Under the pieces are notes generated by a model. It did not search any database, was not told where the DNA came from, and saw only the letters and a list, made by a program, of their open reading frames with translations. A stretch of 23,105 bases of DNA from Calditrichia bacterium (GTDB taxonomy: Bacteria > Calditrichota > Calditrichia > RBG-13-44-9). The stretch covers positions 1 to 23,105 of the forward strand of contig JARRQT010000047.1 of the NCBI GenBank assembly GCA_037381445.1. The letters run 5' to 3'. Below are positions 1,848 to 19,769 of the stretch, piece after piece. The position numbers and the translations under genes were made by a program. Position 1 is the first letter of the stretch. Each line of letters opens with the position of its first letter.

Positions 1848-4800
1848 GGGTAGAGTGCGAATTTCTTGGGAAGCACGTTTGACTGTTCCACAATACCTAC
1901 CGGAATCAGCAGACTGCCGCCTTCATAGGAGATGGACCCGGTCTCTCCCAGGGTGAAGGGGATGGTATTGTCGAACACACCCGATACCAGCCTGAGCACG
2001 CCGTTTATCTCGGTTTCCTGCGAAAGCGTTACCCCTTCGGCGTTATCAATGGTCAGACCGTTCACCGTGTCAGGCAGCATGAAGCCGGTCACCTGCGCGG
2101 CGGTCCCGTTGAAAATGAAGCTTCCTTCTTTGCTCAGGGAGATATCTCCGGTGGACTGCAGAGTAGAATCGATGCCGCCGGTGTTTGCCGTCGCCAGGGC
2201 TGCGCCTGCATCCAGCATAAACAGACCGTTGCCGCCCAGTTGGCTTTCCCCAAAATCCAGGATGGCGCCGCCGGCCACCTCGATGGGCAGGCCGCCGCCG
2301 CCATAGGTAACATCGCTGAGTTCGATGGTTTGCGTGGTGTCCTTATCAAACACGAACCAGGCATTGGTGGGATTAGAGTTTCGGGTCTCGGCATTGGATA
2401 TTGAAAAATTGCCTTCGTGCATATACCAGCGGGTGGAACCCGAACCGTCGCCCTGGGAACCCCTTGAAACCGAGAAAGTGCCGCCGGTGACAACAACATT
2501 GCCGTAGTGATGCACTTCAAACACGGTGAGCGCATTGCCGGTGCCCTGGGTTTCGAAAGAGCCGTCTTCCACGATGACATCGCCCATGATGGTAACGATG
2601 GCCGTATCGCCAGCCGAGGCCGAGGTCAGGCGCCAGCGCGAACCGCCGGTGTTCACGACCGTGATATCTCCGCCGATGGTGACATCATCTAGTCCCAGGT
2701 CGCGGTTTGAGAGCAGGCCCGGGGTATTGATGGTGATATTGTAGTAGTCCTGGTTCCTGTTGCCGGGCGCGGCATCAACAATGCCGGTCAGCAGCAGGGT
2801 AGAGCCCTCGTTCCAGACGCCGTTGGGAATGCTTCCCTCATTGCGCGCATGCTCGTACACCGAACCGTTTTCGAAGACCAGCGAGCCGGCGGCTTCCAGC
2901 ACGCCCTTGTTGACGATGCTGCCGGCCACCGCGCCGGTGTCAGCGGTCACGTCTCCCAGGCTGTCGATGGGCATCAGGGCGTCTGCAGTAAGTCTGAGAT
3001 CGCGGCAAACCAGCGTGTCACTGAAGGAAACCCCTGCGGGGTTTTCAACGGACAATACGCCGAGGGTATCGGGCAGCAGGACACCCGGCACCTGGGGTTC
3101 GGTCCCGTTGAAGGTGAAATTTGCCTCCGGACTGAAGGTGATGGTCCCGGTGGTTTGCAGGGTGCTGTCCAGGCCGCCGGGCAGGGATGTGGCAAGGGTG
3201 GCCCCGGCGGAGAGCACGAAATTACCATTCCCGCCTAAAATCGTGGTGTCCATGTTCAGGGTGGTGGTGCTGTCAACCTGAATGGGCAGACCGCCGCCTC
3301 CGTAATCCACATTGCTCAGCGTGATATTCTGGCTGCCGTCCTCTTTGGCGAATATAAAAGTGGCGCCCTCAGGATTGGAGTTGCGGGTGGTGGCATTGGA
3401 AATGGAAAAATCGCCTTCCAGCATATACCATTTTGTGGTGCCCGTGCCGCCCTGGCTGCCGCGGCTGATGGCGAATGTTCCGCCGGTGACATTGACATTG
3501 CCGTAATGGAGAACCTCAACTTCCGTGGCGCTTGAGGTGCCCTGGGTTTCCAGCGAGCCGTCCTCCACGATCACATCGCCCATGATGGTGACCGCCCCGG
3601 AGGAACCGCCAACCAGGCGCCAGCGGGATGAACCGGAATTGAGGAGGGTCAGGTCTCCGCCGATGGTGTGGCCGTCCAGGCTCATATCTTTATTGGATGA
3701 TAAATCCGGGGTGTTGAGAGTAAGATTGTAATAATCCTGCCCGCGGTCATCAGGCGTGTTGCTGATGATACCGGTAAATAATGCTGTGGAGCCGGTATCC
3801 CAGACAGCCATCGGAACACTTCCGCCGTCACGGGCGTGTTCGTAGACCGAACCGTCCATAAATGTGGGCGTCCCAACATCGTAAATTGTGCCTTCGTTAA
3901 TAACAAGACCGTTAAAACTCATATCCTGTGTTATTTCCATAGTGGAAGAGTCAGCGATCTTAAAATGAATATCTCCGCCGCCATATTCCACATTTTCAAA
4001 CGTGATCTGCTGAGTATCAGCCATCGCAAACACGAATTTTGCATTTCCGGCTGTCGGATTGGAATTTCGCAGTTCCGCATTTGAAACCAGCATATTTCCG
4101 CCAAATAAATTCCAGGTTGTGGTTCCGGACCCATTGCCCTGGGAGCCGCGTGATATGCCGAAGCTTCCGCCGGTCACATTGAGATTGCCGTAATGATTCA
4201 CGATGAAGGTGGTCAGCGCATTGCTGGTCCCCTGTGTTTCAAAGGAACCGTCTTCAACATTTACGTCGCCCATGATGTCTACAATCGCCGTGTCACCGCC
4301 GGAGGCCGAGGTCAGGCGCCAGCGGGAACTGCCGGTATTGAGCACCGTAATATCTCCGCCGATGGTAACATCATCCAGTCCCAGGTCGCGGTTTGAGGAC
4401 AGATTGGGGGTATTGATGGTGATATTGTAATAATTCTGGTTTCGGTTCCCCGGGGCCTGGCTAGTGGTTCCGGTCAGCAAAAAAGTCGACCCCGTTTCCC
4501 AGGTGCTGGTCGGGATGCTGCCCTCGTCACGGGCATGTTCGTAAGTGCTTCCGTCAGCGAACGTCAAAGAACCGTCGGTAACTTCGATAAGTCCGGTGTC
4601 AATGACGGTAACATATCCCGTTATGGTTACGGGCACGTCCACACGCACGGAATCCTCGCCATCCACTGTGATGGTTTCCGTTCCGGCAGGAGCAACAGTA
4701 GCCGCGACCCAGTTCGTTCCGTCGAAGATTTCCCAGGTTGAAGCTTCGCTCCAGTTTCCTGTTTCGAAAGACCGGTAATCTCCGGCCTGCTGCGCAAAGG

Positions 4801-4861
4801 CATAACCAAACATAAACATCGTAATAATTGCCCACAGAATTGTGTATCTTGCTATTTTCAT
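1829..4861 (-). CDS. Large secreted acidic Gly/Thr-rich protein with three internal repeat domains (probable beta-helix); T9SS sorting domain disrupted by frameshift
   Basis: ATG at 4861 is preceded by SD GGAGGT and gives signal peptide MKIARYTILWAIITMFMFGYAFA. Three copies of a unit YEHARxxGS.P...YYN.T.NTP.L.SN...TIGGD...SRWRL...ETQGT...HYGN...SRGSQG...RNSNP. The ORF ends abnormally in KFALYPKWLNW*. Confidence 0.85.
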   Translation of the reverse strand: MKIARYTILWAIITMFMFGYAFAQQAGDYRSFETGNWSEASTWEIFDGTNWVAATVAPAGTETITVDGEDSVRVDVPVTITGYVTVIDTGLIEVTDGSLTFADGSTYEHARDEGSIPTSTWETGSTFLLTGTTSQAPGNRNQNYYNITINTPNLSSNRDLGLDDVTIGGDITVLNTGSSRWRLTSASGGDTAIVDIMGDVNVEDGSFETQGTSNALTTFIVNHYGNLNVTGGSFGISRGSQGNGSGTTTWNLFGGNMLVSNAELRNSNPTAGNAKFVFAMADTQQITFENVEYGGGDIHFKIADSSTMEITQDMSFNGLVINEGTIYDVGTPTFMDGSVYEHARDGGSVPMAVWDTGSTALFTGIISNTPDDRGQDYYNLTLNTPDLSSNKDMSLDGHTIGGDLTLLNSGSSRWRLVGGSSGAVTIMGDVIVEDGSLETQGTSSATEVEVLHYGNVNVTGGTFAISRGSQGGTGTTKWYMLEGDFSISNATTRNSNPEGATFIFAKEDGSQNITLSNVDYGGGGLPIQVDSTTTLNMDTTILGGNGNFVLSAGATLATSLPGGLDSTLQTTGTITFSPEANFTFNGTEPQVPGVLLPDTLGVLSVENPAGVSFSDTLVCRDLRLTADALMPIDSLGDVTADTGAVAGSIVNKGVLEAAGSLVFENGSVYEHARNEGSIPNGVWNEGSTLLLTGIVDAAPGNRNQDYYNITINTPGLLSNRDLGLDDVTIGGDITVVNTGGSRWRLTSASAGDTAIVTIMGDVIVEDGSFETQGTGNALTVFEVHHYGNVVVTGGTFSVSRGSQGDGSGSTRWYMHEGNFSISNAETRNSNPTNAWFVFDKDTTQTIELSDVTYGGGGLPIEVAGGAILDFGESQLGGNGLFMLDAGAALATANTGGIDSTLQSTGDISLSKEGSFIFNGTAAQVTGFMLPDTVNGLTIDNAEGVTLSQETEINGVLRLVSGVFDNTIPFTLGETGSISYEGGSLLIPVGIVEQSNVLPKKFALYPKWLNW
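1900..4560 (-). repeat. Three tandem intragenic domain repeats (YEHAR anchors at 4543, 3844 and 2857; spacings 233 and 329 aa)
   Basis: Protein-level repeats plus shared DNA, e.g. GAGGCCGAGGTCAGGCGCCAGCG near 2616 and 4302, and AGTCCCAGGTCGCGGTTTGAG near 2691 and 4377. Outer boundaries are approximate. Confidence 0.9.
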
Positions 4862-4973
4862 AGCCTTTACCTCCATTCTATTATGGCTTGTTTAATTAAT
4901 TATACTGCCTGCTTCTCACGGGGCAGCCCGGCCACGGCAAGGTCGCAGACCAGGCTGACGCCATGGCCGAAAA

Positions 4974-6542
4974 TCATTTCATCAGTATCATTCGCTTCAT
5001 AGACACATTATTTCCGGCCTGAATACGGTAATAGTAGATACCCGAGCTCAGATTTGCTCCATTGACCTGAAGCACGTGCTCCCCGGCGTTTAAATGTCCC
5101 TTGAACAGCACAGACACTTCCTGGCCCAGCACATTGAACAGTCCGGCGGTCACAAAAGATGAAGAGGCCAGGCCGAAACGGATGGTTGTGGTGGGATTGA
5201 AGGGATTGGGATAATTCTGTTCAACAAAGAACGAACGGGGAACATTCAGCTCATCGGATTCAATCGCGACCGGAATCAGCAGACTCCCGCCCTCATTGGA
5301 AATCGATCCGTCCGGACCCAGTGTGAAGGGAATGGTATTATCGAACACGCCTGCCATGAGTCTGAGCACGCCGTTTATGGTCGTTTCCTGGGAGAGCGTC
5401 ACTCCCGCTGCATTATTGATGATCAGGTCACCCACCGTTGTCGGCATCCGGGTGCCGGTGACCTGGGCGGCGGTGCCGTTAAATCCGTAACCGGACCCGT
5501 CCTCAAGCGTCAGCTCTGCAGTTACGGCCGTAAAGATCTCATTGATGCCTCCGGGAACGGAAGTGAGCAGAGTTGACCCGGCATTTGCCACAAAAATACC
5601 GCTGCCGCCCAGCACGCTGGAACCCATATCGAGCGTAGTGCCGCTGCTGATCTCGATGGGCAGAGCATTGAGCGTATTTCCTTCACCCAGGGTGAGGGTC
5701 TGGGTGCCCTGTTTATCAAATACAAACCTGGCGCCGCCCGGCGTTGCAGTTGAACTCTGGGTAGTGGCATTGGACATGGAAAAATTTCCTTCATGCAGAT
5801 ACCATGTGGTGGTCCCGCCTCCCTGCGATCCCCGACTGACTGAGAAATTGCCGCCTGTTACCACGATATTGCCGTAGTGGTGAACGATAAATGTCGTCAG
5901 TGCGTTGCTTGTCCCCTGGACGGATAAGGCGCCGTCTTCTACAATAACATCACCCATAATAGTGACGGTGGAGGTATCATTGGCCAGCGCCGTGGTCAGG
6001 TACCAGCGCGCATAACCGGTGTTGATCACCCTGATGTCGCCTCCGATAGTGTTATTATTCAGGTTCATATTGAGGTTTGAGAGCAGATCGGGCGTATCGA
6101 AAGTGACGTTATAGTAATCCTGGTCCCGGTCGGCGGGAGCAGTTGCGGTAACCCCGGTGATCAGTAAATTAGATCCTTCGGCCCAGATGCACCTTGGAAT
6201 CGTCCCTTCATCACGGTCATGCTGGTAGGTTCCGCCGTTGGCGATGGTGATAGTAAGACTGTCCACCGCATCAACAATGCCCTGATTAATCAGCGTTCCG
6301 GTAATAGACAAAGGAGCATTTACAAATACAGAGTCTGTGCTGAGGATGGTGATAGTCTCAGCACCTGTGGGCGGGGTCAGCGTATTTCCCCATACCGAGC
6401 CATTGTAGACCTGCCAGACCTGGGCGCTGCTCCAGTCGCCGCTGCCCCGCGTCCGGTAATCCCCCGCCGATTGGGCCATGAGTGACATGGCGAGAATAAG
6501 CATAATAAGAAGCGCGAACATCAACGTACCATTTCTTTTCAT
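4974..6542 (-). CDS. Secreted single-repeat paralogue of the 1829..4861 protein with intact T9SS sorting domain
   Basis: SD AAGGAGG and signal peptide. Shared N-terminus AGDYR..G.WS...W. One copy of the unit (YQHDRDEGTIP, ARWYL, SVQGTSNALTTF, HYGN, SRGSQG). Shared tail GVFDNTIPFTLG..GSIS.EGGSLLIPV, then EQNYPNPFNP...SGIYYYRI...KRMILMK. Confidence 0.85.
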   Translation of the reverse strand: MKRNGTLMFALLIMLILAMSLMAQSAGDYRTRGSGDWSSAQVWQVYNGSVWGNTLTPPTGAETITILSTDSVFVNAPLSITGTLINQGIVDAVDSLTITIANGGTYQHDRDEGTIPRCIWAEGSNLLITGVTATAPADRDQDYYNVTFDTPDLLSNLNMNLNNNTIGGDIRVINTGYARWYLTTALANDTSTVTIMGDVIVEDGALSVQGTSNALTTFIVHHYGNIVVTGGNFSVSRGSQGGGTTTWYLHEGNFSMSNATTQSSTATPGGARFVFDKQGTQTLTLGEGNTLNALPIEISSGTTLDMGSSVLGGSGIFVANAGSTLLTSVPGGINEIFTAVTAELTLEDGSGYGFNGTAAQVTGTRMPTTVGDLIINNAAGVTLSQETTINGVLRLMAGVFDNTIPFTLGPDGSISNEGGSLLIPVAIESDELNVPRSFFVEQNYPNPFNPTTTIRFGLASSSFVTAGLFNVLGQEVSVLFKGHLNAGEHVLQVNGANLSSGIYYYRIQAGNNVSMKRMILMK

Positions 6543-6680: not shown

Positions 6681-8165
6681 TTACCAGATCCGTGGTATTG
6701 CATAGGACAGATCAGCGATAATTGCGTAACGCCGTTCGCTGTTCTTGCTGATCTCGCTTGACCATACATCCTGATATTTCATCAGGGAATTTTCATAAGC
6801 CACATTCAGACGCAGGCCAGAGTAAAATATTCCGAATCCCGTGGAATAAACGGTATACTTCACCGGATCCCCTTCAATTTTGTTTCCTTCCGACTGAAAA
6901 ACCTCCGCTTGCCCTCTCATGCCTCCGCGAAGTGCCAGCCAGGAGGTAACCCGGAACTCCACGCCGACCCGAAAGAGCGAGGCCGACAGCCAGGGGGATG
7001 TTTCGGTGCCATCCGGAGCGACATAGCGGACGGAATTGTAGGGGCGAAAATCATACTCAAGCCCCACCAGCAGATTTTCTTTTGGTGTCAGCGAAATACC
7101 GACCGTTCCGCGCCAGGGAAGTCTCAGTTTATCCTCACCGGAAATCGCGGAAAGGGAAGGGCTGCCGGTCGTGTCAGTCGCGACCTGCATGGAAAACGTC
7201 CGGTTGATTGTGGTGGGCGGTTTCACGGCAAATCCGATGCTGACATAGCGCCCGGAGAGGATGCTGCTGAGCGTGAATTCCTGACCAGTGAAATCCGAAG
7301 TGCCGGTTTTGCTGATTCTGCTGTAGACCGAATCGATTCGGAACGCATTGGAAAAGAAAGTCAGGTTACCCCGTCCCACGGACTGTTCATAATCATCGCT
7401 GTTTCCCCGCAGAAGCATGGCGCTGAATCCGAATGACACATGATATTTCTCCACATTTCCCGCCAGTGAAAATCCGTACCCGTTGATGTATCCTTCGCGG
7501 GAACGAACGGATTGCAGCCATTCGACGGAGAGGGGATTGTCATCCGTCGGGCGGAGTGTGGGAAGGGGGCGCTGAGATAAAATTCCAGGCGAAAGCACAT
7601 TATTATTCTGGTAATAGTTGTCCAGATTAGCATAACGAACCGCGCCGACCCCCGCAGCCAGTTTGATGCTCCCCAGCGATATGGGCACAGCCAGCATTGC
7701 TTCCAGCGGCCGGTTATCACTGCCGGATCGGGACCAGTTGGGGCCGATATTGTCGTACGGTCTTTGCACGGTATCCTGGGCCGTGAAGCCAAAAAGGGAG
7801 CTGTCCGGATTTGGGATATTCCCGGTCCGTCCCTCCAGAAGGAGGCTCAAATTGGGATAGTATCTCACTGGGGCATAATTCTGTTCCTGGTTCAGATCGT
7901 TTGCAAAATGCAGGCCGCCGATTGATATCTGCAGCGACCCGATGGATGGCAGGGTGGCGGGATTCTGGAACATCAGCCCGATATCGTTTTTTACGCCGAT
8001 TGAAATTCCGCCTGCAGCCCTCGACCCGGCGGATTGCAGCGTCATGTTTTCAACTCCCTGGAAGGTCAGTTCTTCACCATATCCCTGAGCAAAAAGGGCT
8101 TGGGAGAAAGTAGCCGGAACAACAAAAAATATCAATACTCTCACTGCAAATTTTAATTTTTTCAT
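6681..8165 (-). CDS. Outer-membrane beta-barrel protein, FadL/PorV-like fold (putative)
   Basis: Signal peptide. N-terminal SAGSRAAGG...LMFQNPATL resembles the FadL/PorV hatch motif. Alternating amphipathic strands (FRVGVEFRVTSWLALRGG, LRLNVAYE). Its ATG overlaps the upstream stop (ATGA, 8162-8165). Confidence 0.7.
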   Translation of the reverse strand: MKKLKFAVRVLIFFVVPATFSQALFAQGYGEELTFQGVENMTLQSAGSRAAGGISIGVKNDIGLMFQNPATLPSIGSLQISIGGLHFANDLNQEQNYAPVRYYPNLSLLLEGRTGNIPNPDSSLFGFTAQDTVQRPYDNIGPNWSRSGSDNRPLEAMLAVPISLGSIKLAAGVGAVRYANLDNYYQNNNVLSPGILSQRPLPTLRPTDDNPLSVEWLQSVRSREGYINGYGFSLAGNVEKYHVSFGFSAMLLRGNSDDYEQSVGRGNLTFFSNAFRIDSVYSRISKTGTSDFTGQEFTLSSILSGRYVSIGFAVKPPTTINRTFSMQVATDTTGSPSLSAISGEDKLRLPWRGTVGISLTPKENLLVGLEYDFRPYNSVRYVAPDGTETSPWLSASLFRVGVEFRVTSWLALRGGMRGQAEVFQSEGNKIEGDPVKYTVYSTGFGIFYSGLRLNVAYENSLMKYQDVWSSEISKNSERRYAIIADLSYAIPRIW

Positions 8166-9199
8166 GGCAGCACAATTCCTAAACTAATCCGCTGAACATT
8201 TCCGAGATAGGTGCCCATGGCTCCGTAACTGTAATCCGCTGAAATCTGCATGCCTTCCAGGGGATATCTGAAGCCGGCACCCAATGTTAGACCATCGAAA
8301 TCGTAATTAAATTTATAGCCTCCCCGCAGGGCAAATATGCCGGCGTATTCATACTCTATCCCCACATGCATCTGCTGGGCGTAATCATTGGGATGGAATA
8401 TATCATATGCCACACCCACCCGGTTCTCCCTGCTTCCTGTGACCAGGAGTCCCTCGGGCCCGATGATATCCGCGCCGACCCCGAAACGGAAGAGCAGGGG
8501 AACGGGATTCGATTCTTTGGCATATTTCACATCGGCGCCGAAATTTTGCACCGCAGAACCGACGAAAACCGAACGATAGCCGGTGTTGTAACGAATTCCG
8601 AAATCGAACAGCAAACCATTTGCCCAGGTGTTTACTTCCTCATACTCGCCCTGACGGACCTGGGCATTGATCCTTTGACCATTGTACAAGGATTCGTGGG
8701 CGAATTTAATACTTGCCCCTATCGAGAACCTGTCTGTCATGTAGCGTGCGTAGGATATTCCGACCAGATAACTGTAGGGGTTAAAGGTTCTTCCCGTCAT
8801 TCCCACATTGTCAGGGTCCTTTATATAGGGACGATCATTGGTGGTTTCTTCGAACTCGCCAAAACTGACATACTGGACCTGCATGCCAATGGCCCCGAAT
8901 CCGTGAAGAGAGAGGGCATAGGAAAACGCGCCTTGCTGGGCATCGAACAGCCAGTTGATGTAGGTGGTTGAAAATCCCATCCTGTTGATGGTGGCCAATC
9001 CCGCCGGATTCCAGAACACTGCTTCCGCCCCGGTTGCCCACACCGTGTAAGCCTCTCCGAGCGCGGTGGCCCGTGCGCACGGCATCACTTTCAGAAACTG
9101 CATGGAGGTGCTTCCCACTTTCTGGGCAAATGATGGGGAAGTAAAAAGAACACCGGCCAAAAGGAAAAGAAAAAATTGTGATTTTAAGAAATTCATCAT
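8162..9199 (-). CDS. PorV/PorQ-family (UPF0164-like) outer-membrane protein
   Basis: Family-typical N-terminus QKVGSTSMQFLKVMPCARATALGEAY...AVFWNPAGLA and C-terminal strands GIEYEYAGIFALRGGYKFNYD...ADYSY...QRISLG. Start is uncertain (9214 TTG, or ATG at 9211, 9199 or 9196). Confidence 0.85.
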   Translation of the reverse strand: MMNFLKSQFFLFLLAGVLFTSPSFAQKVGSTSMQFLKVMPCARATALGEAYTVWATGAEAVFWNPAGLATINRMGFSTTYINWLFDAQQGAFSYALSLHGFGAIGMQVQYVSFGEFEETTNDRPYIKDPDNVGMTGRTFNPYSYLVGISYARYMTDRFSIGASIKFAHESLYNGQRINAQVRQGEYEEVNTWANGLLFDFGIRYNTGYRSVFVGSAVQNFGADVKYAKESNPVPLLFRFGVGADIIGPEGLLVTGSRENRVGVAYDIFHPNDYAQQMHVGIEYEYAGIFALRGGYKFNYDFDGLTLGAGFRYPLEGMQISADYSYGAMGTYLGNVQRISLGIVLP

Positions 9200-9222
9200 T
9201 GTTTTTTCCATCAAAGTTTGGA

Positions 9223-11439
9223 TTAATGAATGACGATAAACTTGCCATGGGACCTTGCGCCTGTGTCGCGGTCCTCCACAACAAAATAGTAAACACCCGA
9301 GGCGATGATCTGATTATTTACGCTGAGCTGATACCATGGATTGCCATATGTTTCCCGATTATGCTCGATTGTTCTGATCAACTGGCCGGTATAGGAAAAA
9401 ATCCTTATGGTACAATGTTTTGTTAGTCCCACAAACTGAACCCGATCGCCGATCTCTCCTGACGGATCGGAACCGCGCAAGCCGCTGGTCACTACCAATG
9501 GATTTGGAATAACATACACTTTTCCTAACGGATCAGCAGGGGGCGCCTGGGTTTCATGCACCGTCAGATTTGTCATGCCGCTCTTCCCGCCAAGCTTATC
9601 CACCGAGACCACCGCATAGGCGGCATTATCTCCCAGATTGCTTTCGGGATCGAGAAGAGAATATTCACCATCCTTAAAATACTCAGGATCGCCGATAGAT
9701 ACGGAATCGATAACCGTCCAGGGGCCCAGCGGATGGGGAGCCCGCAGTACTTCGTAATGATCCAGTTTAGCATGCAGTCTGGGACAATCAAAAGACTCCA
9801 CCTGCGGTCCCCAGATAATCCTGTTGGCTGCTGCGCGGGTGTCTTCAATACGGATTGCGGGAGCCGGAAAAGGAATCGGGATCGTATTGTAATGGCCGCT
9901 GGCAGGTTCCTCTTCCGGTTTATACTGCAGCGTATCATATTTGGCCAATGGCTGGCCTGTATACATTTCAATGGCGCGATCGGCCACATCGCGGATGGAT
10001 ACCACACCGGGAGTGACATACCAGGGCAGCGGATGATCTTTCAGATATGTGCTTCCGATGTAATCCTTTGTTCCCAAAAAATTATAATGCAGCGTGTCGT
10101 ACCAGCTCGGCACCGGGCTGAATAAAAAGCCGGCATCGACCCCGGAACGCACTGTTCCGCCGAGATCCTTGTATTTTCTGTCCCCCGCGACTCCCGGGCC
10201 ATAGCCGGCGAGCTCGGCCACGGAAAAGTGCATCGTCTGCCCGGGGGGCAGGGTATAGGGATAAAAACCGTAAGCGTGGGTTACCGGCTGCCACCAGGAA
10301 AGATTTGTGGAGCCCGTTGTTCGTCCTCTCCAGTAATCCCACAGGTTCGGATCGAATTGATCGACAAACCGGGTGGAATCATTAATACCATTCCAGATCG
10401 ATGTCTTACGGCTCAGAGCGGGATCCATCCACGTTCCGGTTTTTGAATCTCCGGGAAGATTTCCGTTCTCATAGCGGAGCAGAAACGGCTGCTTGGCTTT
10501 GTCATTTTCATCCCACATTCCTGTACTGTCATCCGGACTCCAAAAAACCTGTTTTGTCTGATCTCTGGTGCTCAGGTGTTCATAATCGTAATGCAGCACC
10601 ATGATGCCCACTGCCTGCGGAGAATCCAGGCCTCCCCGGTTGCCCGGCGCTGACCATTCATCGAAAAAATCCGGATCGGGCAGGCCGTCACGCTCGTGGT
10701 TATAACTCATCCAGCGTCTCAGGTCGAAGCGCGCAAAGTGGTCACCCAATCCGTCGGGAGGCTGTCCACGGAAGGCGCTTTCTGCCCAGGAACCATGAAT
10801 CCGCTGATAGCCAAACATTGAGGGGGCAAATGTGTTTGCAAAAGTAATAAAAAGATCAGAAATGGTGTCGTTGGTTACATTTTCAAACGAATACTCGTAG
10901 ATAATAAAACTGTCGTAACCGGGGTAACTCCACTCCCGGCTTGTCCGCGAGACCCTGACTCCCACCGGCGTGTCCCAGCTGGAGATAATGATTTCCTCTG
11001 CTTCGTCCGGATTAAAGGCAGGATTCAATTCTCCGTTTGCCAGCACCGGGTAATTCTCCGTTCTCCGCAATTCAATCGGACTGCTGTAAACGCCGGCCAC
11101 CGGTATAGGATCGCCGTTGGTATTGGAGGTTGCCCCACAGAAAGCAAAGACTCTGCCGTTTGGCCGGGTGCCGGCAATCCAGATACCGCTTCCGAAGGAG
11201 TTCTGCTGGCCGGGATAATTGATCCGATTGAGCACCATGCTGGAGTTGGGCGGCCATTCCATGGAAGGACTGCTGGGCTGAATATTACCGCCCGCATTGT
11301 AGGCTCTGCCCAGTTCACCCGTGTTGTACACGGCCTGGTGAAGCATGCCGCGCCGGTGCACCCGCCAATCCCGCTGCTGGGAAAATAAATTACCGGATGC
11401 GATAATTAAAAGAAGGATAATGAGTACGCTACGTTTCAT
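9223..11439 (-). CDS. Secreted 738-aa protein of unknown function with divergent T9SS-type C-terminal domain, encoded between the TonB receptor and the PorV-family gene
   Basis: ATG at 11439 (GGTG upstream) gives signal peptide MKRSVLIILLLIIASGNLFS. An FN3-like segment (IIW...HYEVLR...YAVVSVD) precedes a CTD-like tail VYVIPNP...CTIRIFSYTGQLIRTIEH...IASGVYYFVVE...GKFIVIH. Confidence 0.8.
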   Translation of the reverse strand: MKRSVLIILLLIIASGNLFSQQRDWRVHRRGMLHQAVYNTGELGRAYNAGGNIQPSSPSMEWPPNSSMVLNRINYPGQQNSFGSGIWIAGTRPNGRVFAFCGATSNTNGDPIPVAGVYSSPIELRRTENYPVLANGELNPAFNPDEAEEIIISSWDTPVGVRVSRTSREWSYPGYDSFIIYEYSFENVTNDTISDLFITFANTFAPSMFGYQRIHGSWAESAFRGQPPDGLGDHFARFDLRRWMSYNHERDGLPDPDFFDEWSAPGNRGGLDSPQAVGIMVLHYDYEHLSTRDQTKQVFWSPDDSTGMWDENDKAKQPFLLRYENGNLPGDSKTGTWMDPALSRKTSIWNGINDSTRFVDQFDPNLWDYWRGRTTGSTNLSWWQPVTHAYGFYPYTLPPGQTMHFSVAELAGYGPGVAGDRKYKDLGGTVRSGVDAGFLFSPVPSWYDTLHYNFLGTKDYIGSTYLKDHPLPWYVTPGVVSIRDVADRAIEMYTGQPLAKYDTLQYKPEEEPASGHYNTIPIPFPAPAIRIEDTRAAANRIIWGPQVESFDCPRLHAKLDHYEVLRAPHPLGPWTVIDSVSIGDPEYFKDGEYSLLDPESNLGDNAAYAVVSVDKLGGKSGMTNLTVHETQAPPADPLGKVYVIPNPLVVTSGLRGSDPSGEIGDRVQFVGLTKHCTIRIFSYTGQLIRTIEHNRETYGNPWYQLSVNNQIIASGVYYFVVEDRDTGARSHGKFIVIH

Positions 11440-11458
11440 ATTTATTTCACCAATTATT

Positions 11459-14401
11459 CTAAAATTCGAAAACAATTCCAAAGCCATAAGACCTGGGCTG
11501 ATTGCTGTAAATTAAAAATGACTGATCCACGCTAAACGGACCCTGTCTACCCTTATCCCACCAATAGCGAATACCGTTTTCTTTGTCGTTGACAGGATAT
11601 TTTTCATAATATTGAAGGGGAAGATTGGGATTTGTTGGGGTGGGTCTGTCAAACACATAATCGTAATTGAGAATTTTATTGTTGAACAGATTGAATACTT
11701 CCATATACAATGTAGCCTTTGCATCGAAGAAGTTCCGGATGCTCTTTGTTATCCTGAGATTGGTATTATATTCCATCGGTGCGCGCTTCACATTAATGAG
11801 CCTGATATCGGAAGGAGACGTGTACGGCCTGCCGCTTCGGACGGTGGAATACGCGGAAATATTCAGGTTTTCCAGCGGTTTGAATCCGAAAACGGACGGA
11901 CCCGAGTGGTTCGCGAATCTGTAATTGGCGGTGATGACCAGATTATGGGTGCGGTCGAAATCCAGCAGAATATCACGGGATGGCACGTTTGTCAGATCGG
12001 TAGTAACCACCCCAAGGGTATCGCGATTGAAAATCGGGGTTGCGGCCGTAGCGGTAGCGCTTTTCCCGGTGGCGTAGCTGAACTGGTAGTTAATCGAACC
12101 GGTTAATGCACCCCTTCTTTTATTTAGCATTACCCGGAATCCACGAATATCCGCATAATCAAGATTGAAATAGGAACTTACCAGATATCCGGCACGCTCA
12201 TCAACAAAATCCGACTGCTGAATAAGATTCTTGACATCCTTATAGTATCCGCTGATATCCAGGGTAAATCCTTCTCCCAGGGACTGCACAACGCCAATAT
12301 CATAGCTGTCTGTCGTCTCAGGATCAAGTTTGGGGTTACCGAGAATGAGGGGAGAATTCAGGAGCTGTCCAAGCCTTCTCGAAACGATGTACTGAAATGA
12401 GGGGCGCTGCATAAACGCACCATAATTCAAATGGAATACCGTAGCGGCAGAAATGGGGAAAGAAAAACCGATTCGGGGCTGCAGACGAACATTTACAGGC
12501 GGTTTTTTAGTTTGTGCAGCCGACGGATCAAAGCGGCCCAGGGAATCAGGCTCTCCAAAGGGTGTATAGAGATCGGGATAATAATTTACGCCGGAATACC
12601 AGGAATCAAGCCGCAGGCCGACATTTGCAATGAATCCTTCAAATTCCATTTTATCCTGCACATAGGCCGCCGCCTCGAAGGGATGCGCTGTATAGCGCTC
12701 CAATTCTCTGGTGGTACGAACATTCAGAAAGTTCGAAACATCGATGAAATAGGAATTGGCCTGCACGCCGGCATTGAACAGGTGTGACCGGGTTACCTGG
12801 CTGGTAAAAGAGCCGTCCAGGGAAAGCGTACGGGTTTTCTCCTTATCAAAGTCGTCATATCCGGCCAGATAATCCATGCGGTCCGGGGAATTATTGCTTG
12901 GGTAGGTAATGGTCTGGTTCACCCAGTTAAAATTCACCGAATCCGGAAGCACATCGGGGACAGGCGTGGCGCCCAGTTGATTATCAGTAAAAAGGGAGTT
13001 GAGTTTCAATTCATAGAAAGTGCTCTGGCTGATGGTCTTTGAAAAGCGTGCGCCCAATTGGGCGTTAGTCCTTTTTCTTTCCCGCAGGCCGGTAATCCGG
13101 TCCCATAACCATCCCTGGTAGCCGCTGACGCTGTTCTCGCTTGGGAATACATTGTCGTTTTGCCGGGTTAAGCCGCCACTGAGGCGAAGGGTTGTCTGGT
13201 TGCCAAGATCAGTGACCACATTGCCCATTGCCTGGTACTCAACATTGGGTGCTTCTGTGGGGAAGACGGTGCTTTCCCGGTTGGATCGCAGGGCAATAAA
13301 CATTCTCATTTTGTTATTAATGGGGCCGCCTGTGGCAGCTTCCAGAGAATAATCAACGTCCCCGCCGTAGGTTCGCCCGATATCTCTTTTGGTCTGCTGC
13401 CAGAGTGCCTGCGCCACCGCCAACTGTACAGTAGTGTCTCCGGCGAAACTGCTGGTCAGTCCCGAAGCCATTGATCCGTAATAGGGCTGAGATTGATCTG
13501 CATTGGGATCTCCGGTCAGCCAGACCTGCTGATTCTGAAGAAGCCGGATATAATCATTTGCGCTGGGATCGAAAACACTTGGTCCGAAGTGCTTGCGGCC
13601 CGGCGCCCGCATGCGCGATTCAATTCTTGTGGACCATCTGTCCCAACCTCCTTCTTTCATTGAAATATTAACCACCCCGGATTGTGCATTGCCGTATTGA
13701 GCGCCGAAACCGCTGGTAATCACCTCAACTTCTTCAACGCCGCTCATAATCGGCATAAAAGCCGAAGAATTATCGAGGGGATTTACGATTCCCATTCCCT
13801 GCAGGGTGTAATACTCTTCGCCCGTGCGTCCGCCCCTGAAATGGCCGTCAACCACATCGGAGGTGAGGTTCAGGACATCACCAATGTCTCTGACGCCCGG
13901 CAGTGTCTGCACTTCATCAAAACGGACAATGGCGCTGGTGGCGGTCTTGTCCCGTTCCACATCGGGCCGTTGTGCGGTAACGACCACTTCTTCCGATTCA
14001 AAAGTTTTTTCCGCAAGCTTGAAATCAATTCTGGTGGTCCTTCCGCCGTTCACCACCACGTCAATAATTTTGGTGGTTTCAAAACCGATCATGATGGCAC
14101 TGAGTTCATATTTCCCGGGGGGAACATTCAATATGTAGTAGGCGCCGTCTTCATCGGTGGCCGCACCCATTCCGCTTCCGGCAATAACGACATTGGCTCC
14201 GGGCAATGGTTCACCGGATTTGGCCTCTGTCACTGTGCCGGCTATCTTTCCAAAAGTCTGTGCAGAGACCGCATTAAAGCTCAGGAAAAGGGTAAACGCT
14301 GCCAAAACAACATACCCGGGAGACATAAATAAATACCGGAGTCTTTTTCCGCAAAAACTCCAAATTCTTTGAACATACAAAAGGAAATGCATCTTTGACA
14401 T
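11459..14401 (-). CDS. TonB-dependent outer-membrane receptor with N-terminal carboxypeptidase-regulatory-like domain
   Basis: SD AGGAG. N-domain GKIAGTVTEAKSGEPLPGANV...GAYYILNVPPGKY. TonB-box-like EEVVVTA. Plug motif EVEVITSGFGAQYGNAQSGVVNI. Barrel motifs LGNPKLDPETT and DISGYYKDVKN. C-terminal PRSYGFGIVFEF. Confidence 0.92.
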   Translation of the reverse strand: MSKMHFLLYVQRIWSFCGKRLRYLFMSPGYVVLAAFTLFLSFNAVSAQTFGKIAGTVTEAKSGEPLPGANVVIAGSGMGAATDEDGAYYILNVPPGKYELSAIMIGFETTKIIDVVVNGGRTTRIDFKLAEKTFESEEVVVTAQRPDVERDKTATSAIVRFDEVQTLPGVRDIGDVLNLTSDVVDGHFRGGRTGEEYYTLQGMGIVNPLDNSSAFMPIMSGVEEVEVITSGFGAQYGNAQSGVVNISMKEGGWDRWSTRIESRMRAPGRKHFGPSVFDPSANDYIRLLQNQQVWLTGDPNADQSQPYYGSMASGLTSSFAGDTTVQLAVAQALWQQTKRDIGRTYGGDVDYSLEAATGGPINNKMRMFIALRSNRESTVFPTEAPNVEYQAMGNVVTDLGNQTTLRLSGGLTRQNDNVFPSENSVSGYQGWLWDRITGLRERKRTNAQLGARFSKTISQSTFYELKLNSLFTDNQLGATPVPDVLPDSVNFNWVNQTITYPSNNSPDRMDYLAGYDDFDKEKTRTLSLDGSFTSQVTRSHLFNAGVQANSYFIDVSNFLNVRTTRELERYTAHPFEAAAYVQDKMEFEGFIANVGLRLDSWYSGVNYYPDLYTPFGEPDSLGRFDPSAAQTKKPPVNVRLQPRIGFSFPISAATVFHLNYGAFMQRPSFQYIVSRRLGQLLNSPLILGNPKLDPETTDSYDIGVVQSLGEGFTLDISGYYKDVKNLIQQSDFVDERAGYLVSSYFNLDYADIRGFRVMLNKRRGALTGSINYQFSYATGKSATATAATPIFNRDTLGVVTTDLTNVPSRDILLDFDRTHNLVITANYRFANHSGPSVFGFKPLENLNISAYSTVRSGRPYTSPSDIRLINVKRAPMEYNTNLRITKSIRNFFDAKATLYMEVFNLFNNKILNYDYVFDRPTPTNPNLPLQYYEKYPVNDKENGIRYWWDKGRQGPFSVDQSFLIYSNQPRSYGFGIVFEF

Positions 14402-14532: not shown

Positions 14533-15951
14533 TCAATTTTGTAATTGACCATTGATATATACATTTTTCATCACCAGGTTTTTATAGTATCGCAGCAGAT
14601 TTCCATCCATAACACCGTCAAAGCGGCAGTCTTCAAGATGAAAGCTGGTAACAGGAGACCGTTTATAGCCTTCCAGAGATATCCCGTAGCGGCTCTTGCG
14701 GCTGGTAACATTGCTGACATAGATATCACGGACGACGGGAAGGTGCTGGCCAACATCGCCTTCACCATAATTAAAATTGATTTTTACCACTGCATCGCTT
14801 ACCTGGCCCACCGTAACATTTCGCATATATATATTTTCAACGATTCCGCCGCGCATTGAATTGGTTTTTATCCTCAGGGCCCTTTCCAGATTCGGGCTGT
14901 CCATGGCGCAGTCTTCAACGAACACATTGCGCACATTTCCGGACATTTCGCTGCCGATCACAACACCGCCGTGGCCGTCCTTCATAGTGCATCCCTGGAC
15001 AATAATATTCTCGCTGGGCTCATTTACCCGGCGGCCGTCCGCATTCCTTCCCGATTTAATTGCAATGCAGTCATCACCCGTATCGAAGTAGCTGTTCTTG
15101 ATCAGAACATCTTTTGATGATTCCGGATCGCAGCCGTCGTTATTGGGACCATGACTGCTGATTCTGACATTTTGCACGGTGACATTCTCACTTAATACCG
15201 GGTGAATTTCCCACATTGGCGAGCGTTTTATGGTCACACTATCGATCAATATATTCCTGCACTTATACGGTTGAATGAAATTCGGACGCAGATAATGATT
15301 TTCACCAAAAACCCTGTCCGCCACCGGGATTCCCTCTTCTCCCATCCTGAACAATTCCTCGCGGTCACGGTCCTGGCTCGGCGATCCATCTTTGCTGCGG
15401 CCTTTCCAGGGCCACCAGGCGTGCTCTCCGGCCTGACCATCCAGCGTTCCGCTGCCTGTGATGGCAATATTTTCTTCATCGTAAGCGTATATGAAAGGGG
15501 AATAGTTCATGCACTCCACGCCCTCGAAGCGGGTATAAACCACAGGCAGATATTTTTGGGGATCGGTGGAAAAAAGGATGGTAGAATTTTTTGTCAGGTG
15601 CAGGTTGACATTACTCTTCAGGTGAATGGCGCCGGTCAGGAAGATTCCCTGCGGGATGACCACCCGGCCACCCCCGGCTTCGGAACAGGCCTGAATTGCC
15701 TGCGCGAAAGCGGTAGTGCAATCGGTGCTGCCGTCGCCAACTCCGCCGTATTCGATAATAGAAAAGTCATTTGCCGGAAAGGTGGGCGGAATAATATCAC
15801 TTAATATCCCGGGAACCTGCTCCCAGCCGGTGGCTGTTGAATCGGACGAAATACCCGATATCGGGAAAACGCTAAATAGCAGAAGCAGAGTTATTGCAGC
15901 TGGAAAAAGGAATTGAGAAATAACGCGGTGTCTTTGGTATCTGTTTTTCAA
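14533..15951 (-). CDS. Glycoside hydrolase family 28 (polygalacturonase, probably exo-acting)
   Basis: All four GH28 motifs are present: NNDG, GDDCIAIKSG, GHGG and LRIKT. N-terminal YGGVGDG..DCT.AF..AI..C. Hydrophobic signal segment. The TTG start is uncertain. Confidence 0.93.
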   Translation of the reverse strand: MKNRYQRHRVISQFLFPAAITLLLLFSVFPISGISSDSTATGWEQVPGILSDIIPPTFPANDFSIIEYGGVGDGSTDCTTAFAQAIQACSEAGGGRVVIPQGIFLTGAIHLKSNVNLHLTKNSTILFSTDPQKYLPVVYTRFEGVECMNYSPFIYAYDEENIAITGSGTLDGQAGEHAWWPWKGRSKDGSPSQDRDREELFRMGEEGIPVADRVFGENHYLRPNFIQPYKCRNILIDSVTIKRSPMWEIHPVLSENVTVQNVRISSHGPNNDGCDPESSKDVLIKNSYFDTGDDCIAIKSGRNADGRRVNEPSENIIVQGCTMKDGHGGVVIGSEMSGNVRNVFVEDCAMDSPNLERALRIKTNSMRGGIVENIYMRNVTVGQVSDAVVKINFNYGEGDVGQHLPVVRDIYVSNVTSRKSRYGISLEGYKRSPVTSFHLEDCRFDGVMDGNLLRYYKNLVMKNVYINGQLQN

Positions 15952-16014: not shown

Positions 16015-17118
16015 CTACCGGGATGCCGTAGCAATCATCTTGTCCATTTGAAGACCGGCCATTATAAACGGACCGACGCCTTTGAGGTCATTGGAAACCA
16101 CCGGTTCGCTGATGTAGTATTTAAACGAACCATCGCGATAAGGATTCCCTCCCAGCCCGGCAACACTGCAGATGCCGTTCAGACTTATCCGGCTGTCGTC
16201 ATCCGTGCTCAGCATCTTTTTGATAATTCCGTTATATCCTTTAACGGCGGTTTCGCGATAGGTTTGATCAATATACCCTTTGCTGACAGCTTTCGCAATT
16301 GAATAAATAAACATTGCCGAGCATGAGGTTTCAAGATAGTTGCCGGAGCGTCCTCCCAGATCCACTATCTGGTACCACATGCCGCTGTTGTCCTGATATT
16401 TTCTAACGGCTTTCAGCAGGTCGGTGAGAATATAGACCAGCTGGCTTCTGTTGGGATGATCAGAAGGAATATAGTCCAGAACATCTACCAGGGCCATGCT
16501 GTACCAGCCCATAGCCCTGCCCCAGAAGTGCGGGGAACATCCCGTGACCGGATTCGCCCAGGCCTGTTTGTTGCTTTCATCCCATGCATGATAGCGAAGA
16601 CCGGTTTGGGCATCGCGGGTATGCATGTCTATCAATTTAATCTGCTTAATGACATCTTCAAAAGCATCCGGCTGTTCAAACATCAAACCGAATTCCGCGT
16701 AAAAGGGGCCGCTCATATAGATACCATCCAGCCACATTTGCCAGGGATAGCGCTGTTTATGCCAGAATCCGCCTTCGGAGGTTCGGGGCTGTTTCTGCAA
16801 TTGCTCATACAGAATTTCAGCGGCGTGTTTATATTTTTCATTTCTGGTTATTTTATATAATTGGAGTAAAACTCTCCCGGAATTTATTTTGTCGAGATTA
16901 AAATCTGTCATATGATAGGTTTTGATGCTGCCGTTTTCCTCAATAAAGGAATCAATAACTTTTGTGACATATTCCAGATATTTGGAATTGCCTGTCACCT
17001 GCCATAGGTCAAGCAGAGATTCTAAAAAAAGCCCGGTGGTATATTGCCATTTCACACCGGAATCCGGTCCGGCATAGACTAATGAAGTTCCGAGCCGTTC
17101 CATTTCCGAATCAGCCAT
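16015..17118 (-). CDS. yteR: Glycoside hydrolase family 105, unsaturated (rhamno)galacturonyl hydrolase; true start probably further upstream
   Basis: Motifs WQYTTG, NLDKINSG, GGFWHKQRYPWQMWLDGIYM, HFWGRAMGW, YLETSCSAM and VAGLGG..YRDGS..YY..E. The frame stays open upstream to 17259. Confidence 0.92.
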   Translation of the reverse strand: MADSEMERLGTSLVYAGPDSGVKWQYTTGLFLESLLDLWQVTGNSKYLEYVTKVIDSFIEENGSIKTYHMTDFNLDKINSGRVLLQLYKITRNEKYKHAAEILYEQLQKQPRTSEGGFWHKQRYPWQMWLDGIYMSGPFYAEFGLMFEQPDAFEDVIKQIKLIDMHTRDAQTGLRYHAWDESNKQAWANPVTGCSPHFWGRAMGWYSMALVDVLDYIPSDHPNRSQLVYILTDLLKAVRKYQDNSGMWYQIVDLGGRSGNYLETSCSAMFIYSIAKAVSKGYIDQTYRETAVKGYNGIIKKMLSTDDDSRISLNGICSVAGLGGNPYRDGSFKYYISEPVVSNDLKGVGPFIMAGLQMDKMIATASR

Positions 17119-17209: not shown

Positions 17210-18424
17210 ATGGAGAGTGAAAAAAACAGTAATAAAATACTCGAAAAAATTCTGGCGAGTCAGGAATTTTCCAATTCTAAAATATATCAATCCTATCTGA
17301 CCTACCTGGTGAATGCCGCAGATGAAGGGCGTTCCGTCAAAGAAATCACCATCGCGATGGAAGTATTCGGAAAAGATGCCGACTTCAATCCGGCTGAGGA
17401 TGCAATTGTCAGGTCACACACTTATACGCTTCGAAAAAAACTTAGCAATTACTATTTTAATGAAGGAAAGGATGACCGGTATCGTCTGAAAATTCCCAAG
17501 GGGCATTATGAAGTGCAATTTTACCCGGTATCAAATAACCGGCTAACATTCGAAAATACAAAAAAATATTATCCCTGGGTGGTTGTGTTTATTTGCGTAA
17601 TAGCTGTTATTTTTTTCTGGATGAAGAATCGCAATCTGCAGGATCAGCTGCAGAGTTATCAGCCGATTGATCCGCAGGATCCAATCTGGAAGGAATATAT
17701 TCAGTCTGAAATACCCGTAATGATTGTTCCCGGCGAGCATATTTTTTATACCACATATTTCGAAAAATTCGGGAAAGAGCTCACGGTTCGCGATTATACC
17801 ATAAATTCCCTGCAGGAACTGGACAGCCTGAAGTCGGTCTACCCTCAATACAATATAAGAAGGAGCGATGAACCGTATTTCCCTTATCACAGTGTCTGGG
17901 GGATTCCGCCACTTTTAAATATATTATTTGAAGGCCACCAAAAGCCTATTTTCAGAAAATCTCTTGATATAAGTCCCCAGATTCTGGACGAATACAATTT
18001 TATTTTCATTGGCAGTATTAAAACACTTTATACCTTCAACTACACTGTGGCCAAATCACATTTCACTTTCAGCATTGCTCCCCATGTGATCACTTACACG
18101 AATCCCGACAGCAACAAAACCATACGTTATTCCACCAATTTGCATTCCCTGGGATTAAATGAGGACTTGGTGTTGGCACTCAAACTTCCCGGTCCCGCCG
18201 GAAACACGATTTTCATTATTGCTTCCTATCATTCCCTGGGTGCGCCTGAAATTGCCGATTATCTCACATCACCACCGAAGAGGGCTGAACTGGAAAAATT
18301 GTTCATGAGCAAATATGGCGGCATTCCCAAGTATTTTGAGATATTATTCAAGGTGACCGGTATAGACAAAACGGCCTACAGCAGTGAGATCTTAATTTGC
18401 AATAAGATAAACAGTGAGCAGTGA
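17210..18424 (+). CDS. Membrane-anchored one-component transcriptional regulator (N-terminal winged-helix domain, single TM, periplasmic domain)
   Basis: N-terminal pattern LEKILASQEF..S......L.YLV...KEITIAMEVFGK...FNPAEDAIVR.....LRKKL..YY..EG...L.IPKGHY.V.F. One TM helix (PWVVVFICVIAVIFFWM, about 17573-17623). C-terminal soluble domain of about 265 aa. Confidence 0.75.
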   Translation: MESEKNSNKILEKILASQEFSNSKIYQSYLTYLVNAADEGRSVKEITIAMEVFGKDADFNPAEDAIVRSHTYTLRKKLSNYYFNEGKDDRYRLKIPKGHYEVQFYPVSNNRLTFENTKKYYPWVVVFICVIAVIFFWMKNRNLQDQLQSYQPIDPQDPIWKEYIQSEIPVMIVPGEHIFYTTYFEKFGKELTVRDYTINSLQELDSLKSVYPQYNIRRSDEPYFPYHSVWGIPPLLNILFEGHQKPIFRKSLDISPQILDEYNFIFIGSIKTLYTFNYTVAKSHFTFSIAPHVITYTNPDSNKTIRYSTNLHSLGLNEDLVLALKLPGPAGNTIFIIASYHSLGAPEIADYLTSPPKRAELEKLFMSKYGGIPKYFEILFKVTGIDKTAYSSEILICNKINSEQ

Positions 18425-18512: not shown

Positions 18513-19769
18513 ATGAACGGATCGTTTCCCAGATTTATCTTTATACTTTTTTTCAGCATGTTAATGCTCATTCATCCGGCAGATGCGCAAACGCGAGATA
18601 CTATTGTTGTGGATAAAAACGGCAACGGCGACTATGAAACATTATCAAAGGCAATTGCCTCCCTTCCCATGTTCAATTATCAACGCGTCACCATTTTCAT
18701 TAAGCCCGGCATCTATAATGAAAAGATCCGGATTGAACAGGATTATATCACGCTGGAAGGAGAAGACCGCGCCAGCACCATTATTCAGTATAATCAGCTT
18801 CGGGAGGACTGGAATCGGGGCAAGGACACTATCGGACCGGCAGTTATTAACATCCACGCCGACGATATTATTCTTAAAAATCTCACCATTAAAAATACCC
18901 AACCGCAAATTGGACCGCATGCATTTGCCATTTACGGTGACGGCACCCGCACCATTCTGTTGAATTGCACAGTGGTGAGCAGGGGAGGTGATACCGTCTC
19001 CCTGTGGAATTACAAAACCGGGATGTACTACCACGCCAACTGTTCTTTTGAAGGGGCGGTGGATTTTGTCTGTCCGCGGGGCTGGTGTTTCATCAGGGAC
19101 TCAAAATTCTATGAAATGAAAAAAACTGCCGCCATCTGGCATGCCGGCGGAAATGATATGGGGCAAAAGCTGGTGATTATGAATTCATCCTTCGATGGCG
19201 TGAAGGATTTCCAATTGGGCAGGCATCACTACGAAGCGCAATTTTACCTGATTAACTGCACTTTTTCCCAGAATATGAGCGACCGGCCCATTTACCGGGT
19301 GACTTATGAGGACTCTACCCGCAACCGTCCCTTCAACTGGGGGAAGCGCTATTATTTTTCAGATTGCCATAGAATTGGTGGTGATTTTGAGTGGTTCGCT
19401 GATAATCTGAACAACGCGGCCGGGGCACCTTCGCCGGATGAAATTACGCTCTGCTGGACTTTTGAAGGGCGGTGGGATCCGGAGTCTTCAACCGGTCCCG
19501 GAATCGTTAAATTTGAAATTCATAAAAATTATATACTTTTGTATTTTGATGACATAGTAACGGTGAAAGGGATTCCGGAATTAATATCAGATACCGGGAA
19601 ACATTTCACGTATTATTCTGGGGGCGGCTCGGATACGATTCGTTTTAATACCCCCGGAACGGTTTCAGCCGGAGATTTGCCGGGACTGAAAATCAGCAAT
19701 GCAGCAAAGCTGCTGGGCAGCAGGGCTTCGGTCTGTGAACGCCCGGTAAGCCTGAAAATTCAGCCATGA
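18513..19769 (+). CDS. Pectin methylesterase (CE8) with C-terminal Ig-like extension
   Basis: Signal peptide. Motifs IVVDKNGNGDYETLSKAI, IFIKPGIYNEK, GGDTV, YYHANCSFEGAVDFV and LGR. Confidence 0.85.
   Translation: MNGSFPRFIFILFFSMLMLIHPADAQTRDTIVVDKNGNGDYETLSKAIASLPMFNYQRVTIFIKPGIYNEKIRIEQDYITLEGEDRASTIIQYNQLREDWNRGKDTIGPAVINIHADDIILKNLTIKNTQPQIGPHAFAIYGDGTRTILLNCTVVSRGGDTVSLWNYKTGMYYHANCSFEGAVDFVCPRGWCFIRDSKFYEMKKTAAIWHAGGNDMGQKLVIMNSSFDGVKDFQLGRHHYEAQFYLINCTFSQNMSDRPIYRVTYEDSTRNRPFNWGKRYYFSDCHRIGGDFEWFADNLNNAAGAPSPDEITLCWTFEGRWDPESSTGPGIVKFEIHKNYILLYFDDIVTVKGIPELISDTGKHFTYYSGGGSDTIRFNTPGTVSAGDLPGLKISNAAKLLGSRASVCERPVSLKIQP

Follow-up and report, generated by a model that had tools for sequence, protein, structure and literature searches.

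A receptor, secreted protein and PorV-family block in a Calditrichia pectin locus: a possible counterpart of SusC/SusD with a type IX-delivered partner

How are pectin fragments taken across the outer membrane where SusC/SusD is missing? Polysaccharide utilisation loci (PULs) are recognised by their SusC/SusD genes. In carbohydrate-active enzyme (CAZyme) clusters of Ignavibacteriales susCD genes are few (PMC10576277), and the glycan import route in such lineages is left unexplained by them. The question is raised again by the stretch analysed here (the window), which is one whole contig, JARRQT010000047.1, of 23,105 nucleotides (nt), from the 5.1 Mb genome of a Calditrichia bacterium (GCA_037381445.1; 91.85% complete). 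At 6681-14401 it holds a four-gene block encoding a TonB-dependent-receptor (TBDT)-like protein, a secreted protein (named X here) and two small barrels. The block is real, conserved and not a member of SusC/SusD. At a probability of roughly 0.55, it works like SusC/SusD with a partner that is delivered via the T9SS (type IX secretion system) and anchored by a barrel. X would be exported by T9SS, keep its tail, be held by its own PorV paralogue and help the receptor to capture oligo-uronates in place of SusD. Statements on published systems refer to excerpts of the cited sources. The genes of the block are as follows (aa, amino acids; ORF, open reading frame).

11459..14401, minus strand: TonB-dependent-receptor-like protein, 980 aa, N-terminal CarboxypepD_reg (PF13715, E 7e-21); not SusC family
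9223..11439, minus strand: protein X, 738 aa, start ATG at 11439 (ORF, predicted structure)
8162..9214, minus strand: PorV/PorQ-family barrel, 350 aa, cassette paralogue (NF033709, 218.9 bits vs cut-off 90)
6681..8165, minus strand: FadL/BamG-fold barrel, 494 aa (model and Foldseek)

All four genes run head to tail among pectin enzymes (two GH28, GH88/GH105, pectinesterase, PL9). The receptor and X are separated by 19 nt, X and the PorV-family gene by 11 nt (ATG 9211) or 23 nt (ATG 9199), and the two barrel genes share an ATGA overlap. An earlier note on this DNA had described such a tightly packed, co-oriented module, with a PorV-family gene directly after X and a second, FadL-like barrel, and this description was borne out for all four genes. 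A refinement is that a fifth gene (4974-6542) is equally conserved. A promoter and terminator scan of the block was at shuffle level (21 vs 15.9 +/- 3.8 and 14 vs 13.5 +/- 3.8, respectively), and no RNA holder is listed for it.

Protein X and its C-terminal tail

The signal of X, read from the sequence, is of the cleavable type, ends FSQ/Q and has no Cys. Among X homologues with an anchorable N-terminus, Gln stood at the predicted mature start in 258/259 and a lipobox-like pattern was present in 1/259, using a simple pattern test rather than SignalP. X gave no Pfam match at E<=0.05, hence no SusD or TPR family, and no match by phmmer against PDB sequences. Its Atlas feature matches were to unnamed clusters only. 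The earlier note had proposed a cleavable signal without lipobox Cys and no recognisable SusD/TPR features. Both points held, and neither SusD nor a known enzyme family was matched.

The structure of X was predicted from a 150-row alignment (predicted local distance difference test, pLDDT, 90.7; predicted template modelling score, pTM, 0.90). In this model mature residues 1 to ~500 form a mutarotase-like beta-supersandwich with helical inserts, ~500-612 an FN3 domain and 614-718 a PorZ-like C-terminal tail. The model is beta-sandwich throughout, with short helical inserts, and has no helical SusD/TPR fold. The N-terminal sandwich gave Z 19.8 with that of dextran dextrinase; its best matches (Z 16-20) were the N-terminal domains of enzymes from families GH15, GH94 and GH116. 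The catalytic (alpha/alpha)6 barrel of GH15/GH94 is absent from the model; FN3 and the tail follow the sandwich instead. Aldose epimerases/mutarotases (Z ~11-12) and lyase domains were found lower in the list. The listed fold-search rows did not include SusD, an absence that carries no weight of its own. Two X homologues have another architecture: P0223 carries N-terminal Ig domains before a full X, and in P0234 the X sandwich stands before a standard type A tail.

The earlier note had given X a T9SS-like C-terminal domain. The tail is of a secretion type, but not of the standard type A or B; it is PorZ-like instead. Compared with the PorZ tail, the predicted X tail gave Z 12.5 and a root-mean-square deviation of 2.0 over 91 residues at 33% identity, and the only PDB sequence match of the X profile was PorZ (5m11, E 3e-4). 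No match to the type A models TIGR04183/PF18962 was found at E<=0.05, and the type B model CHU_C gave 14.1 bits vs a cut-off of 27. An X-tail model was built from the 18 X tails of cassettes in the source genome and scored by leave-one-out. All 18 tails scored 83-137 bits on the X model vs 10-28 on the type A model, and the window tail 82.6 vs 21-23 on type A models. Held-out type A tails scored higher on the type A model in 86/86 cases. X tails are thus a separate class from type A. The near-terminal Lys is kept (K713). In published systems, the PorZ tail falls outside types A and B and is uncleaved, and PorZ is anchored by PorQ (PMC10947112, PMC11285876). Type B cargo requires a cognate PorP/SprF barrel encoded downstream (PMC12618676, PMC9143113).

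SprA, PorU, a PorV equivalog, a PorZ homologue and TonB are present in the genome, together with 136 tails classed as type A, of which 3/136 stand directly before a non-cassette PorV-like gene. Matches to PorU are divided between contigs C219 and C301. Contig C3 carries another PorU-like C-terminal piece next to a PorV2-like gene.

The PorV paralogue, the receptor and the conservation of the block

The window PorV gene falls below both equivalog models, NF033710 (PorV; 80.7 vs 250 bits) and NF033711 (PorQ; 77.7 vs 220). The housekeeping PorV equivalog is on contig C46 (NF033710, 271.1 vs 250 bits). The PorV-like gene on contig C3, beside the PorU-like C-terminal piece, had also been considered as the housekeeping PorV and was rejected, being below the cut-off. 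The window PorV profile matches PorV 6h3i (E 1e-35). The PorP family (TIGR03519) gave no match at the window PorV gene, and no member in the genome reaches its cut-off. Using phmmer, 25 PorV-like ORFs were found in the genome. In a FastTree tree of these paralogues a branch supported at 0.98 divides the 17 cassette PorVs from the remaining 8. The window gene is therefore a dedicated cassette paralogue and not the only, housekeeping PorV of the genome, the case that the earlier note had named as fatal to its proposal.

Pairs of another kind were seen elsewhere. At L102:6059-12397 with L102:4749-6044, and also in G000:C128, PorV-like genes with C-terminal extensions directly follow genes for large secreted proteins (of 2113 aa and at least 1015 aa). 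No receptor of the cassette subfamily is near either pair, and the L102 barrel gave a weak OmpA-type match.

The receptor scored 67 bits on the SusC model TIGR04056, vs a cut-off of 368.25. Weak TBDT model matches cover its barrel half, and its profile matches PhuR (E 1e-5). Its homologues (36 aligned) match the barrel family PF00593 in 17/36 cases and Plug PF07715 in 4/36. On this sequence evidence it is treated as a TBDT outside the SusC family. A complex prediction of the receptor barrel (mature 207-933, plug left out) with X 1-273 gave a score of 0.04 and a mark of 0.32; both chains were shortened, and the result carries no weight either way.

The genome contains 17 receptor/X/PorV cassettes. 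TBDT-like ORFs were surveyed (31, being 30 from the genome search and one added truncated receptor), and the receptor subfamily was defined as those with at least 200 bits on the receptor profile, a line drawn after the scores were known. For each of the 17 members of this subfamily, a PorV-like gene lies no more than 4 kb downstream and an X-type tail no more than 8 kb away. Such a PorV and X tail accompany none of the other 14, of which 9/14 have at least 4 kb of contig downstream. X stands directly after the receptor in 15/17 cassettes; a 238-aa ORF intervenes in one and X is upstream in one. A second X gene is found in one cassette, and the assembly breaks two of the X genes. Of 17 X proteins, none had a Pfam match at 1e-6. 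For receptor, tail and PorV the tree distances are correlated over the 17 paralogous cassettes (rho 0.56-0.73; 0-2/5000 permutations). Neighbouring genes include GH66, GH9, GH3, GH2, peptidoglycan amidase and sugar symporter genes, and the other cassettes border dextran, cellulose, beta-glucan and peptidoglycan gene sets. Two of them (L083, at G000:C12:8000-27900, and L084) lie in tandem amid genes of a peptidoglycan-recycling type (amidase, NlpC/P60, GHL10 and a SIS-domain protein).

The SusD families PF07980, PF12771 and PF14322 gave no match in the 91.85% complete genome, and no gene in it exceeded the cut-off of the SusC model. SusD_RagB is scarce in the class: 31/86 genomes have any match, at 0-3 per genome. 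PorV/PorQ-family matches number 11-54 per genome in these bacteria.

X orthologues at 68-84% identity were named from KSB1, Calditrichia and Bacteroidota, and loci were also found in Ignavibacteria. Clade 1 comprises 26 loci after the removal of 6 duplicates. PorV, FadL barrel and 522-aa gene were all present in 22/22 of its loci with downstream room. A pectin enzyme was found in 20/26 and PL6/alginate lyase in 0/26; in the six loci without a pectin enzyme the contig stops near the block on one or both sides. In clade 2 (15 loci; BLAST identity of X 32-38%) the four genes are kept but another gene takes the fifth place, with PL6 in 15/15 and pectin enzymes in 0/15, the alginate queries having been taken from clade 2 loci and named by Pfam. 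Heparinase II/III-type lyases, KdgK and KDPG aldolase were found in several clade 2 loci. A third group of 5 loci is mixed. Both clades occur in one genome (L033, L045). Type A cargo follows the block in 22/22 clade 1 and 15/15 clade 2 loci with room. The trees of the four genes agree, with rho 0.87-0.95 over 31 loci and 0.53-0.92 within clades. The neighbourhood survey proposed in the earlier note thus found the block complete wherever contigs allow, associated with CAZymes, and with congruent gene trees.

The identity of the housekeeping PorV drops with kinship (76% in the same family, 58-65% in the same order or class, 48-51% in five genomes of other groups), whereas that of the cassette PorV holds across the same steps (73%, 77-79% and 64-79%). 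This suggests that the pectin block moved laterally, although the two identity measures differ.

The fourth gene gave a model with pLDDT 86.9 and ~14 strands (DSSP), with long outer extensions. The best Foldseek matches were BamG (9hiv_F, E 2.7e-17, and 9n2d_B), then FadL, and BamG, FadL and TodX-type structures fill the top 27 ranks. The gene remains below the BamG equivalog model NF053685 (41.9 vs 250 bits). The barrel was found in exactly the same 22/86 class genomes as full-length X, by a profile built from many of these. It is single copy in the source genome, and the other 16 cassettes are without a detectable copy.

How the block may work, and other explanations

X would probably be exported by type IX secretion and probably keep its PorZ-like tail, and the adjacent PorV-family barrel would hold it at the cell surface, by analogy with PorZ-PorQ and SprB-SprF. 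Anchoring by the PorV paralogue would follow a close experimental precedent (PorZ-PorQ; type B cargo with PorP/SprF) and has strong genomic support. At the surface X may help the neighbouring receptor to capture oligogalacturonates, in the place of SusD. This part, X as an oligogalacturonate-binding receptor lid, is putative and was drawn from gene position, co-inheritance and substrate-tracking clades only. The position of X directly after the receptor, which is that of SusD, and the failure to find SusC/SusD were counted for it. For the FadL-like barrel the proposed role, a guess by analogy with BamG, is that of an accessory scaffold confined to the polyuronate (pectin and alginate) subfamily; passage of small uronates is the alternative. 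The inference of an alternative utilisome made in the earlier note is therefore partly supported: X is not SusD, the block is conserved, its PorV is separate from the housekeeping one, and anchoring has precedent and genomic backing, while the lid function is the putative part.

As in a SusC/SusD PUL, a CarboxypepD_reg TonB-type receptor is followed by a secreted partner inside a CAZyme cluster, with many paralogues per genome and subfamilies that follow substrate. The differences are that the receptor is below the SusC cut-off, that X, in place of a helical TPR lipoprotein, has a beta-sandwich fold, a cleavable signal and a secretion tail, and that the unit includes one or two additional small barrels. 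PorZ-PorQ (and PorU-PorV) share with it the PorZ-type tail, by profile and fold, and a barrel of the PorV/PorQ family. However, X lacks the propellers of PorZ, a PorZ homologue and a PorV are encoded elsewhere in the genome, and the X/PorV pair exists in 17 copies, each linked to a receptor. In type B systems (SprB-SprF, PG1035-PorP) a cargo gene is likewise directly followed by its own small barrel gene, but the X tail is far below the CHU_C cut-off and the barrel is of the PorV/PorQ family and not PorP. Known type B cargo are adhesins, and TonB is not mentioned in the two papers searched for it. The fourth gene resembles the 14-stranded BamG/FadL barrels in fold and extended strands; it differs from BamG in its equivalog score and in being patchy, occurring in the class always with X.

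The nearest published locus is the alginate locus of Rhodothermus marinus MAT378, printed in the order tonB, hypA (T9SS sorting domain, 2181 nt), hypB (PorV/PorQ, 1056 nt) and hypC (hypothetical, 1398 nt) (PMC9530828, Figure 2 legend). There hypA-C adjoin alginate lyases, kdgK and kdgA, and are labelled hypothetical with no function given (PMC9530828). Sizes and context match clade 2, the likeness being by printed description and not by sequence; the window locus is for pectin. Among the named homologues the Rhodothermus proteins could not be picked out. A cultured host with the same printed gene order makes the SusD-like reading directly testable. No functional description of the block was found in the literature searched, most subscription papers and supplements lying outside that search. 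In a 2026 review of glycoside transporters (PMC13543919) a term search found none of T9SS, PorV, Ignavibacter, Gemmatimonad and Rhodotherm.

Several observations weigh against a SusD-like role; those that favour another explanation are given with it below. The non-SusD lids of Bacteroides TBDTs (BtuG, XusB, DUF4876 and others) are, in the source excerpts, all lipoproteins (bioRxiv 2023.03.17.533168). They resemble the block in that the receptor is outside the SusC family and has a conserved adjacent partner unrelated to SusD, but X is not a lipoprotein. In Rhodothermus, a xylan locus places a SusC/SusD pair next to a receptor and three genes listed as hypothetical, of which two have sorting domains (PMC6987092, Table 1). 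That receptor and the hypothetical genes look similar by description, and the two systems may thus be complementary and not equivalent. X-type tails also occur in four non-cassette genes, one being the PorZ homologue, and these four have no PorV neighbour. Linked genes give congruent trees without contact, so the tree correlations show inheritance as a block and not binding.

The best surviving alternative, though an unlikely one, is that X, exported and held by its PorV paralogue, acts at the surface on its own, either binding glycan or as a new enzyme (of lyase, epimerase or mutarotase-like type); it would share regulation with the receptor without capping it. The sandwich fold is catalytic in mutarotases and in some of the listed matches, which include the aldose epimerases and lyase domains. 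The residues H8, R10, E41, E128, R148, E162 and R193 (mature numbering) are invariant. X lengths in the genome, ~600 to 1200 aa, are more varied than a single lid family suggests. Against this, the best fold matches are non-catalytic N-terminal domains, and ordinary enzymes in the genome carry type A tails. An X accompanies every receptor of the subfamily irrespective of the enzymes alongside, as would be expected of a transporter partner more than of a substrate-specific enzyme.

It is quite improbable that the block serves as a scaffold or assembly platform at the surface, arranging or displaying the secreted enzymes and adhesins of the locus, with import secondary or absent. The BamG fold of the fourth gene would fit, BamG being a scaffold that docks a surface protein via extended strands (PMC12611786), as would the type A cargo that follows the block in both clades. 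The window receptor itself misses the TBDT core models of Pfam, Plug PF07715 and barrel PF00593. PorF, a T9SS component in Porphyromonas, is TBDT-like. However, nearly half of the receptor homologues match the TBDT barrel family, no SusC/SusD was found that could import the products, and inner-membrane sugar transporter or catabolic genes flank several cassettes.

The least probable explanation, a very doubtful one, is that X is not surface-exposed, with a periplasmic or other route and a different job for the PorV-like barrel: the GldM/PorM motor (TIGR03517) had no match in the source genome at 91.85% completeness and none over cut-off in 31 class genomes (PorL/PorK/PorN were not searched), leaving the export machine incomplete or divergent by known models, and PorP is below cut-off, but SprA, PorU, the PorV equivalog, the PorZ homologue and the type A tails are present, X keeps K713, and PorV binds tails through its extracellular loops (PMC10994853). 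The coexistence of SprA, PorU, PorV and more than 130 type A cargo with no recognisable GldM/PorM is an observation in its own right.

If X does act as a SusD-like partner, the combination of receptor, X tail and PorV would be a new marker that predicts substrate niche (pectin vs alginate) in widespread uncultured bacteria of sediments and bioreactors. It would also account for the many PorV/PorQ-family matches per genome, and type IX secretion would take on a structural role in transport. A wider version is tentative and falls a little short of even odds. In it Calditrichota, KSB1, Ignavibacteria and relatives would use a second utilisome, independent of SusD, as their main outer-membrane nutrient importer, with a beta-supersandwich lid delivered by type IX secretion, a third tail class and a private PorV clip. 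The polyuronate subfamily would add the BamG-fold barrel, bringing the machine to four or five parts; it would have passed between phyla as one block and diverged into pectin and alginate forms.

Neighbouring genes of the window

The other features of the window are listed below.

64..1608, minus strand: PL9-like pectate lyase, type A tail (PF22842, E 4e-19; TIGR04183)
1829..4876, minus strand: 1015-aa repeat paralogue of the 522-aa protein (phmmer)
4974..6542, minus strand: fifth conserved gene, 522-aa secreted protein, type A tail (TIGR04183, 39.9 bits)
14533..15951, minus strand: GH28 galacturonase, directly upstream of the receptor (PF00295, E 2e-34)
16015..17118, minus strand: GH88/GH105 unsaturated uronyl hydrolase (PF07470, E 2e-117)
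17210..18424, plus strand: divergent 404-aa membrane-anchored protein, candidate regulator (no Pfam match)
18513..19769, plus strand: pectinesterase, CE8-type (PF01095, E 1e-20)
19813..21378, plus strand: second GH28 (PF00295, E 5e-31)
22153-23103, plus strand: multiheme cytochrome c-like ORF truncated by the contig end (CxxCH motifs)

The 404-aa protein has a short N-terminal domain and one membrane span. Its homologues (51-76%) adjoin several pectin-clade cassettes and two third-group loci, and it is a possible one-component regulator. The 522-aa and 1015-aa proteins belong to an unnamed secreted repeat family that goes with the pectin clade and whose model is an AIDA-like beta-helix; Atlas model rows for the 522-aa protein gave template modelling scores of 0.54-0.60 to AIDA-containing clusters, under the naming bar. 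They are candidate pectin-binding surface proteins. The 1015-aa protein (1829-4876) ends early. In a three-frame read its type A tail continues in another frame, with a part seemingly missing, and full-length homologues have an intact C-terminal tail; the break is either an assembly error or a real lesion.

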